Source: a virus (lineage: Duplodnaviria > Heunggongvirae > Uroviricota > Caudoviricetes). Taken from it: DNA of 15,635 bases. The stretch lies in IMG/VR virus record IMGVR_UViG_2526164662_000033. One strand, 5' to 3'. A program made the position numbers. Shown here piece after piece: positions 3,001-6,000 of this stretch. Within the stretch, counting starts at the first letter, position 1, and every line of letters starts with the position of its first letter.

Positions 3001-6000
3001 TCTGGATAAAACACTTACCGTGAATACAGGTGCGCTGCTGACAATGTCAGTCAGTGCCAACGGGGGAACGCCGCCGTATAAATACGCCTGGAAGAAGGAT
3101 GGTCAGCCGGTTGACGGGCAGACGACAGACACCTTCAGTAAGCCAGGTGCGCAGTCCGCTGATGCGGGGAAATATACCTGCGTGGTGACCGATTCGGCAG
3201 AGAAAGCACAGAGTGTGACGTCTGTTGAATGCACCGTGACAGTGAGCGCAGCCGCCGGATAAGGGGATGGGTCATCATGAAAAAGGATCTGAAAACGCTG
3301 GCGCTGGCCAGACTGTCAGGGTTTCGTCATAAAACGGTGAAGGTGCCGGAATGGGGTAATGTCAGCGTGGTGCTGCGGGAGCCTTCGGCAGAGGCCTGGT
3401 ATCTGTGGCAGAAAGTGCTCAATGGTGATGGAGAGGATGACGATACCCTGTCGGTGGTGGCGAAAACCCGCCGTAACCTGGAAGCGGATGTGACGCTGTT
3501 CTGCGATGTCCTGTGTGATACGGATCTGCAGCGGGTGTTCGCTCCGGACGACCGTGAGCAGGTGCTGGCCGTCTATGGTCCGGTACATGCCCGGTTGCTG
3601 CGTCAGGCACTGGAACTGATCGCTGATGCAGAGTCGGCCAGAAAAAAGTAGCCCGCCCGGAAATTCGCTTTCTGATGCGACTTGCGCTCCGTCTGGGGCG
3701 CACCTTATCCGAACTGCGGCACAGCCTGAGTGCGAGCGAGGCGATGATGTGGATGGAGTTTGACAGGGTGTCCCCGCTGGGTGATGAGCGCGGGGATATC
3801 CGTAATGCACAGATCGTGAAAGCGGTTTTCGGGGCACAGGGGATGAATGTTGCACTGAAGGACGCCATGCTCTGCTGGGGCGAGGATGAGGATAAGCCGG
3901 AGGTGGATCCGTTTGCGGCGCTGGAAGACGCGCTGAGCTTCGCAGCACAGTCATGAATGATGAGAACCGCTGAGGCGGTTTTTTTACGCCCGGAGAAAGG
4001 TGAATGGCGACGTTACGTGAACTGATTATCAAAATTTCGGCAAATTCGCAGTCATTCCAGTCGGAGATCCAGCGGGCTTCCCGCATGGGCAGTGAATATT
4101 ACCGGACCCTGCAGAATGGCGGGCGTCAGGCTGCCGCAGTCGCCCGGGAGCAGCGACGCGCCCTGGCTGAGCTGAACAGCCAGTTGACGGAAATCCGCGC
4201 TTCAGCTGCCGGAACGGCGGGGGCATTTGCAGGTGCCTTTGCCACCGGACACCTGATTTCTCTGGCCGATGAATGGAGTTCCGTGAATGCCCGACTGAAA
4301 CAGGCGTCGCAGTCATCCGATGAATTTTCGTCATCACAGAAAGTGCTGATGGATATCAGCCAGCGGACGGGCACGGCATTTTCAGATAATGCGGCCCTGT
4401 TTGCCCGCTCGGCAGCCTCAATGCGTGAATATGGTTACAGTGCTGATGATGTGCTGAAGGTGACGGAGGCCATTTCCACGGGGCTGAAAATCTCCGGTGC
4501 CAGTACGGCAGAGGCGGGCTCGGTGATCACCCAGTTCAGCCAGGCGCTGGCACAGGGTGTGTTACGCGGTGAGGAATTTAATTCGGTCAATGAAAGCGGA
4601 GACCGGATCGTACGTGCACTGGCTGCGGGTATGGGCGTGGCCCGTAAAGACCTTAAGGCGATGGCGGACGACGGCAAACTGACGGCGGATAAAGTCGTTC
4701 CTGCGTTAATCAGCCAGCTGGGGGTATTGCGTGATGAATATGCCGCCATGCCGGAAACGGTCTCTGACGGGATCACAAAGGTGGAAAACGCCTTTATGGC
4801 CTGGGTGGGTGGCGCGAATGAAGCCAGCGGGGTGACAAAAACGCTCTCCGGCGTGCTGAACGGTGTTGCCGGTAATATTGATAATGTGGCAACAGCCGCG
4901 GGGGCGCTGGTTGCCGTCGGGGTTGCCCGGTACTTTGGCAATATGGCCTCCGGAGCGGTGTCTGCCACGGCAGGACTTGTGACGGCAGCACGTAATGAAG
5001 TGGCACTGGCGGAAGCACAGCTCAGGGGGACGCAGATTGCCACGGCGCGGGCAAGGGCAGCCGTGTACCGTGCACAGCAGGCTGTGGCGGCAGCCCGCGG
5101 GACGGAGATGCAGATTGCTGCAGAAGCCCGTCTGGCGGCCACACAGGAACGCCTGAACAGAAATATTGCTGCCAGAACCGCAGCCCAGAATGAGCTGAAC
5201 AGTACAACGGCGGTGGGCTCACGTCTGATGACTGGTGCGTTGGGACTGGTTGGTGGCGTACCCGGACTGGTGATGCTGGGGGCAGCAGCATGGTATACGC
5301 TGTACCAGAATCAGGAGCAGGCCAGGGAGTCAGCGCGCCAGTATGCACTGACGATAGATGAAATCGCGCATAAAACGCCGTCAATGTCTTTGCCTGAAGC
5401 CTCAGATAATGAAGGACGAACACGGGCGGCGCTGGCAGAGCAGAACCGGCTGATTGATGAACAGGCCAGCCGGGTGAAATCCCTGCAGGAAAAAATCGCT
5501 GGATATCAGTATGTTCTGGCTAACCCTGGCTGGACAACCGGTGACGGATTCATGATAAACCATCTGACATCGGTGAAGACCGTGACGGAAGGGCTTTCTC
5601 AGGCAACAGAGCAGCTTGCCGTTGAGCAGTCCCGTCTGGCACAGATGCAGGAAAAAGTGCAGTCCATTCAGGATGTGCTTGCCGGGCTGGAAGACCGTCG
5701 TGTGGCGTTAATTCGTCAGCAGGCGGCAGAGCAGAATAAGGTGTACCAGTCCATGCTGGTTATGAACGGTCAGCATACGGAATTCAACCGTCTGCTGGGG
5801 CTGGGGAATGAACTGCTTCAGCAGCGTCAGGGACTGGTGAATGTACCGTTACGGCTGTCGCAGGCCACCCTGGATGATAAACAGCAGAGCGCCCTGACAA
5901 AAACAGAACGTGAGCTGGCCCTGTCCCGACTGAAGGGGGAGGAAAAAGAGCGTGCCCGGCTGGGGTATGCGGCGGATGACCTTGGTTTTGTGGGGGATTC

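Follow-up and report, generated by a model that had tools for sequence, protein, structure and literature searches.

The question raised by the locus described here is how the T-like half of a phage tail chaperone gene pair is translated. The locus lies in the IMG/VR virus record IMGVR_UViG_2526164662_000033, a stretch of 15,635 nucleotides (nt) that was analysed at its full length and is called the window below, and it forms part of the HK97-type tail module of a lambdoid E. coli prophage. Here a G-like tail assembly chaperone gene ends in the slippery heptamer A_AAA_AAG, its stop codon follows directly, and a T-like segment continues in the -1 frame with an ATG that is annotated as a start of its own. 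A G/G-T frameshift in long-tailed phages was reportedly described by Levin in 1993 and by Xu, Hendrix and Duda in 2004. We consider it very probable that the site is a programmed -1 ribosomal frameshift of the G/G-T tail assembly chaperone pair of this module, and that the T segment is expressed solely as the C-terminal part of G-T. This functional reading, proposed already as a two-product G and G-T system in a first-pass annotation made from the sequence alone, is supported because the protein families, the annotation of HK97 gp14, the conservation over 33 lineages and a reporter value of 7% all speak for it.

The slip site and the two predicted products

Translation of the junction bears out the codons and the phase that the first-pass annotation had given for a heptamer directly before TAG. 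G closes with the codons GCC (3637), AGA (3640), AAA (3643) and AAG (3646) ahead of the stop, and the heptamer stands in the phase X_XXY_YYZ, its zero-frame codons AAA and AAG being the final pair of sense codons in G. Starting at G3648, the -1 frame runs GTA GCC CGC CCG GAA ATT CGC TTT CTG ATG and onwards, and the 102 open codons claimed beyond the heptamer extend to the TGA at 3954-3956, with no stop between 3648 and 3675. The predicted fusion G-T thus comprises 124+102 = 226 amino acids (aa), the size that had been estimated; it joins ...ESARKK to VARPEIRFLM..., and the junction peptide contains ESARKKVARPEIR.

The open -1 frame as a whole covers 3627-3953, the nearest upstream stop lying at 3624, 7 codons before the slip site. 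Eight stops fall into this frame within G and none across T, where the other two frames carry 8 and 6, and at the stop-triplet frequency of the window the chance of 102 open codons is about 0.03. The window contains the sequence AAAAAAG three times, where 1.37 copies are expected, and a count at least this high comes up in 29 of 200 shuffles. The heptamer by itself is therefore not significant, and it is the context that carries the weight, because the site is in phase, ends the sense codons of G and is followed by a -1 frame that is open across T only.

With respect to the start of G, we used the ATG at 3277, which is preceded by a Shine-Dalgarno (SD) sequence (GGGGA, with an anti-SD duplex energy of -8.4 kcal/mol), is used by RefSeq and yields a full 124/124 Pfam match. 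A mechanical list of open reading frames (ORFs) places the start at ATG 3229, within the 3' end of the major tail gene.

The families of both parts are clear, and the proposed search of the joined translation against tail chaperone families returned PF06222 and PF06223. G belongs to Pfam PF06222 Phage_TAC_1 (E=7.7e-61, 203.9 bits at a cut-off of 25) over residues 1-124 of 124, and the T part belongs to PF06223 Phage_tail_T (E=2.8e-18, 66.6 bits at a cut-off of 25.9) over fusion residues 152-222. Among the PHROG families, G matches phrog_344 (tail assembly chaperone) and T matches phrog_337, and the fused G-T family phrog_14766, with 224 positions, is matched by G at 2-122 and by T at 133-224. 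G also matches the HK97 tail assembly chaperone in PDB entry 2OB9 (E=1.5e-45), and its RefSeq name is ‘phage tail assembly chaperone’. In NCBIfam, neither G nor T nor the fusion is represented by a model. A BLASTP comparison with lambda G and T gave no match for T and only chance matches for G, at E of 6 or more; lambda T and the T segment are linked by the Pfam profile only.

Besides, the site has already been catalogued and measured. Antonov et al. (2013) obtained 7 ± 0.79% -1 frameshifting in E. coli from a 75-nt cassette in a GST-MBP reporter, listed as fs-gene 15618692 of the GeneTack cluster Phage_TAC (PMC3711429), and our sequence comparison finds this cassette identical to positions 3622-3696 of the window. 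Sharma et al. (2014) list a prophage cluster of 53 genes, A_AAA_AAG_25, represented by ECs1801, labelled ‘tail assembly chaperone; [true]’ and counted as a demonstrated -1 programmed frameshift, in which the motif ends at aa 124, the zero-frame product has 124 aa and the frameshift product 226 aa (PMC4066793). In the public records, HK97 gp14 carries the remark ‘translated due to a -1 frameshift’, and the entry for Bcep176 gp69' takes the form of a join.

Table 1. Coordinates of the features at the G/T junction and in the surrounding tail module.
Feature	Position	Strand	Remarks
G-like tail assembly chaperone gene	3277..3651	+	124 aa, then TAG; zero-frame product
Slippery heptamer A_AAA_AAG	3642..3648	+	in phase; very probable -1 shift site, tRNA-Lys
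Zero-frame TAG stop	3649..3651	+	abuts the slip codon on its 3' side; TA shared with the -1-frame GTA (Val)
T segment	3648..3956	+	102 codons in the -1 frame, then TGA
ATG annotated as T start	3675..3677	+	RefSeq/PGAP start for a separate 93-aa ‘tail assembly protein T’
8-bp hairpin UGCGCUCC-GUCU-GGGGCGCA	3683..3702	+	formed by the LALRLGR codons; predicted fold
Major tail (tube) protein gene	2546..3262	+	C-terminal Ig-like domain; Pfam Ig_3/Ig_2, Phage_tail_2/TTP; RefSeq ‘major tail subunit’
Tape measure gene	4004..7246	+	1080 aa; Phage_HK97_TLTM E=1.4e-88, TMP_3, Tape_meas_lam_C
IS66-family element	12482-14817		three ORFs, listed below
HTH_Tnp_1 ORF of the element	12482-12886		
Small ORF of the element	12883-13230		
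DDE_Tnp_IS66 transposase ORF of the element	13279-14817		

Conservation among relatives and the route to G-T

To place the junction among its relatives, we surveyed 156 loci with G homologues at 36-100% identity, the window counted in, which were drawn from annotated phages, IMG/VR and bacterial assemblies at one genome per species; a reduced set comprises 33 lineages with mutual identity below 80%. The T motif LALRxG[RK] follows G in the -1 frame in 153 of the 156 loci, and the in-phase A_AAG stands upstream of it at a distance of 33 nt (143 loci), 36 nt (9) or 39 nt (1). The other three loci lack the motif at a contig end (L007) or in rearranged or degraded sequence (L140, L144). A frameshift mutation or pseudogene as the origin of the split was rejected, since the arrangement persists in 153/156 loci, even where identity falls to 36%. 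All 33 lineages use AAG as the slip codon, always preceded by A; AAG makes up 33% of the Lys codons elsewhere in the G/T genes, which gives a naive P of ~2e-16 for 33/33, and other synonymous sites are saturated across the lineages. The heptamers as a whole comprise A_AAA_AAG (23 lineages), x_GCA_AAG (5), G_GAA_AAG of the HK97 type (3), G_GGA_AAG (1) and A_GAA_AAG (1). The Val after the slip site is conserved as well, encoded by GTA in 21 of the 31 Val-carrying lineages and by GTC or GTT in the others. Lambda has the same K-V junction and motif spacing, and the slip site therefore seems to accompany the T module even where the G families differ.

How slippage would yield the two products can be outlined from what is known of E. 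coli. Most ribosomes would finish the 124-aa G and terminate at the TAG at 3649, and a few percent would slip back by one base on A_AAA_AAG. In doing so, the P-site tRNA-Lys would re-pair from AAA to AAA, and the shift from AAG to the overlapping AAA would be favoured because the single tRNA-Lys of E. coli pairs better with AAA than with AAG (PMC5009743). In the same host, A_AAG ranks as the best -1 tetramer and A_AAA_AAG among the best heptamers (PMC5009743; PMC4066793). GTA (3648-3650) would be read next, and translation would proceed through the 102 codons to the 226-aa G-T. G and the G part of G-T would then coat the tape measure protein, their presumed client, and the T domain would recruit the major tail protein, with the slippage frequency setting the G:G-T ratio; the part of G-T in tail assembly of this prophage is drawn by analogy with lambda and should be read accordingly as a probable one. 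Between tandem and single-tRNA slippage, and on the contribution of the adjacent stop, we can only infer.

Stimulatory elements around the slip site received no support. The best anti-SD pairing upstream of the slip site is -3.0 kcal/mol, and an SD-like stimulator at this place was rejected, since energies and positions are inconsistent between lineages. Downstream folds are no stabler than shuffles (z = -1.1 for 82 nt and -0.9 for the 130 nt structure of Sharma et al., 2014), and a downstream stimulatory RNA structure was rejected on this ground. Our folds agree with the weak structure reported by Sharma et al. (2014), for which the stability excess is 0.020 kcal/mol/nt, under their own threshold of 0.09, and no SD is given (PMC4066793). 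The hairpin at 3683-3702 (Table 1) was considered separately: its synonymous sites favour pairing bases (Ala GCG in 26/34, Gly GGG in 22/34 and Leu CUC in 15/34), no compensatory changes occur in it among the diverged lineages, and it is broken in lineages with a G-K motif (Lys for Arg). At 35 nt from the slip site it lies too far away for a classical stimulator, and such a role is unsupported. The cassette that gave 7% lacked the 3' arm of this hairpin, and the 130-nt structure was likewise incomplete in it.

The stop codon next to the slip site points to a different way of moving into the -1 frame, single-tRNA slippage at a ‘shifty stop’, which Weiss et al. are said to have described in 1987. 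With AAG in the P site and a slow stop in the A site, one peptidyl-tRNA-Lys would slip from AAG to AAA, the stop would act as the stimulator, and the upstream AAA would be dispensable. We judge this to be unlikely. In its favour, A_AAG alone is invariant and ranks first among the -1 tetramers of E. coli, the window has the arrangement AAG TAG, and the stop adjoins the slip codon in 18/33 lineages (122 loci). P-site codons that do not re-pair (A_GCA_AAG, G_GCA_AAG, A_GAA_AAG) are found in 6/33 lineages, and all six have an adjoining TAA; the association between a weak heptamer and an adjoining stop reaches a one-sided Fisher P=0.017 with phylogeny ignored. The native cassette, too, gave 7% against 0.29% for the naked heptamer A_AAA_AAG, though these values come from different reporters and are not comparable. 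On the other side, the remaining 15/33 lineages place the stop 3-33 nt downstream, and the mEp390-type cassette G_GGA_AAG CCG TAA, with its stop one codon later, reached a similar 6% in the assays of Antonov et al. (PMC3711429). Furthermore, where the stop adjoins the slip codon, its TA doubles in the -1-frame GTA for the conserved Val, so that coding alone could retain it.

Seen in this light, that the adjacent stop helps slippage, as the first-pass annotation suggested, is plausible, and the sequence comparison faintly hints at it. The farther-reaching version, in which the conserved signal would be A_AAG plus an immediate stop rather than the heptamer, seems to us doubtful. One peptidyl-tRNA-Lys would then slip back during the wait for release factor, and the G:G-T ratio would depend on how fast termination proceeds (RF1/RF2 level, stop context). 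If true, this would explain the lineages with non-slippery P-site codons such as GCA AAG TAA and GTA AAG TAA, and it might explain the 7% of the native cassette versus the 0.3% of the naked heptamer. In any case, the slip sites tabulated across the family combine an A_AAG that never varies with a P-site codon that does and, often, an adjoining stop, and they form a natural experiment for the ‘shifty stop’ idea in -1 frameshifting. As a separate observation, the adjoining stop is TAG or TAA in every case, and TGA occurs only where the stop lies 12-33 nt downstream; AAG TGA would keep the -1-frame Val (as GTG), and shared ancestry may explain the missing adjacent TGA.

A further alternative is that T is translated alone, with ATG 3675 serving as an independent start or as a point of re-initiation once ribosomes have terminated at the TAG, and that the heptamer is incidental. 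This is how RefSeq, PGAP and most phage records treat it, with a separate 93-aa ‘phage tail assembly protein T’; Met is found at this position in 32/34 lineages, and with the TAG only 23 nt before the ATG some re-initiation is conceivable. Against this stands the weak initiation context that the first-pass annotation had remarked upon: the anti-SD energy of the ATG is -3.5 kcal/mol, which equals background (37% of the window positions are equally good), whereas true starts in the window range from -6.6 to -10.3 kcal/mol. No conserved SD precedes the T ATG across the 33 lineages, most relatives being weaker here than the window. Protein conservation also reaches back past the ATG, since the nine residues from the slip site to the ATG are kept as K-V-[A/S]-x-P-x-x-x-F-L-M, and because they are conserved as protein, -1-frame translation upstream of the T ATG is indicated. 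Xenorhabdus lineages have CTG (Leu) at the position of Met-134 of the window, and two of these lineages (L116, L129) are without any Met in the motif. The complete conservation of the slip codon AAG and the K-V junction and spacing to the T motif as in lambda argue in the same direction. In lambda itself, T is reportedly made only as G-T, according to Levin, Hendrix and Casjens in 1993. Finally, the reporter showed a fusion product (Antonov et al., 2013; PMC3711429). Taken together, ATG 3675 is most likely an internal Met codon, and a stand-alone T is very improbable.

Least probable of all, and hardly credible to us, is transcriptional slippage, in which RNA polymerase would stutter within the A run and some transcripts would gain one A. 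The resulting G-T would be indistinguishable (...AGA AAA AAA GTA...), and the 733R4, Pectobacterium and Serratia clades do include relatives with A8 runs at the slip site. The run in the window, however, counts six A's (3642-3647), productive bacterial transcriptional slippage has been described where a run of A or T reaches about 8 residues or more (PMC3711429), and the GCA AAG, GGA AAG and GAA AAG members keep the architecture without a homopolymer, the G_GGA_AAG cassette giving 6%.

Several points nevertheless weigh against a programmed ribosomal frameshift at work in this prophage. Between the 7% of the cassette and the 0.29% of the naked heptamer lies a gap of about 20-fold, which reflects either the native context or a difference between the assays. 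The GST-MBP value cannot tell ribosomal from transcriptional slippage (PMC3711429), as reporter assays do not separate the two routes. Protein-level evidence for a 226-aa product of this prophage was not found. Lastly, the prophage copy in the window is probably defective, because its J gene is interrupted by an IS66-family element, and the signal may be out of use in this strain.

The tail module and its annotation

The gene order around the junction, a V-like tube gene, G, T and the tape measure gene, followed by homologues of lambda M, L, K, I and J, is that of an HK97-type tail. The window is 95-99% identical to 92 records of Stx-converting and related phages, and the module is present in 1246 of 5426 complete E. 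coli genomes, about a quarter.

At the distal end of the module, the J-like ORF at 9954-12404 has just 816 aa, and the IS66-family element starts right behind it. An intact relative encodes a gpJ of 1158 aa, followed by Lom and tail-fibre genes, and the tip-attachment gene J of the window appears to be cut by the insertion. Other copies show alterations of their own. In NZ_CP027591.1 (L002 / L157, E. coli 2014C-3011), the G/T junction is otherwise identical and the annotation marks the neighbouring tape measure gene as a frameshifted pseudogene, which we take as a further sign of decay in many copies of the module. In the 99%-identical locus L015 (IMGVR_UViG_3300029191_000019), the T frame, from about position 1830 onward, leaves T after LALRLGRTL and enters K-like (JAB/NlpC-P60) sequence, which indicates that a deletion took the remainder of T together with M, L and the tape measure gene.

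A terminator-like hairpin, GAGAACCGC-UGAG-GCGGUUUUU, lies in a U run at 3962-3985 (z = -2.1), after the T stop and ahead of the tape measure ATG at 4004; folding places it at 3962-3983. A terminator consensus scan of positions 2400-4200 returned nothing, this hairpin included, probably as its stem is over-extended into the U run. HK97 has an annotated putative terminator at the matching place, after the moron gene 15, a gene that the window does not have. The hairpin might attenuate read-through into the tape measure gene.

The practical value of the site lies in its annotation. RefSeq has one entry for G and another for the 93-aa ‘T’, and a collection of about 15 billion proteins does not contain the 226-aa fusion. 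Since the databases store G and T apart and without the fusion, the 226-aa G-T would be missed in proteomics searches and in phage-engineering work on Stx prophages. As a discovery, the value of the site is small: the G/G-T frameshift is textbook knowledge, and the exact cassette has already been tested and catalogued.

Comparison with known systems

One comparison is with dnaX of E. coli, which shares the identical heptamer A_AAA_AAG and the same tRNA-Lys basis. In dnaX (gamma/tau), an upstream SD-like element and a downstream hairpin bring frameshifting to about 50%, and the shift product is the shorter protein. The stimulated sites of the dnaX and IS911 type have their SD-like element some 10 nt upstream and a stable hairpin or pseudoknot 5-8 nt downstream. 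In contrast to them, the window has no SD-like element and no structure beyond shuffles, published frameshifting stands at about 7%, and the longer of the two proteins is the one that the shift produces.

Within the tail chaperones, Burkholderia phage Bcep176 resembles the window in gp69/gp69', with a distant member of the same G family (36% identity), A_AAA_AAG in phase and a recorded join described as ‘lambda G / T equivalent’, but its stop lies 11 codons past the slip site and its host is a high-GC one. Lambda G/G-T follows the same logic: its T belongs to PF06223, the pair sits likewise between V and H, the junction is again K-V, and the slip site stands at an equal distance from the motif, which reads LAREMGR in lambda. 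The first-pass annotation had set the heptamer apart from that of lambda, and the lambda sequence does read GCG GGA AAG TGT, that is, G_GGA_AAG; the stop there lies 5 codons downstream and G is of a different family. For lambda, a G:GT ratio of 30:1 and the chaperone model have been described (PMC5009743).

HK97 gp13/gp14 have a G that is 62% identical (PF06222), the same T family, the same order of major tail and tape measure genes and the slip AAG again 33 nt from the motif, here LALRMGR. They differ in the imperfect heptamer G_GAA_AAG (CGG GAA AAG TCT), in a stop 5 codons downstream and in the moron gp15, which in HK97 separates T from the tape measure gene and which the window lacks. ECs1801 of cluster A_AAA_AAG_25 (PMC4066793) and the Phage_TAC entry 15618692 (PMC3711429) represent the same site without any sequence difference, and what distinguishes the copy in the window from these entries is the J gene interrupted by the IS66-family element. 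The site is a catalogued and measured member of a textbook system, real but ordinary, and its novelty is nil.

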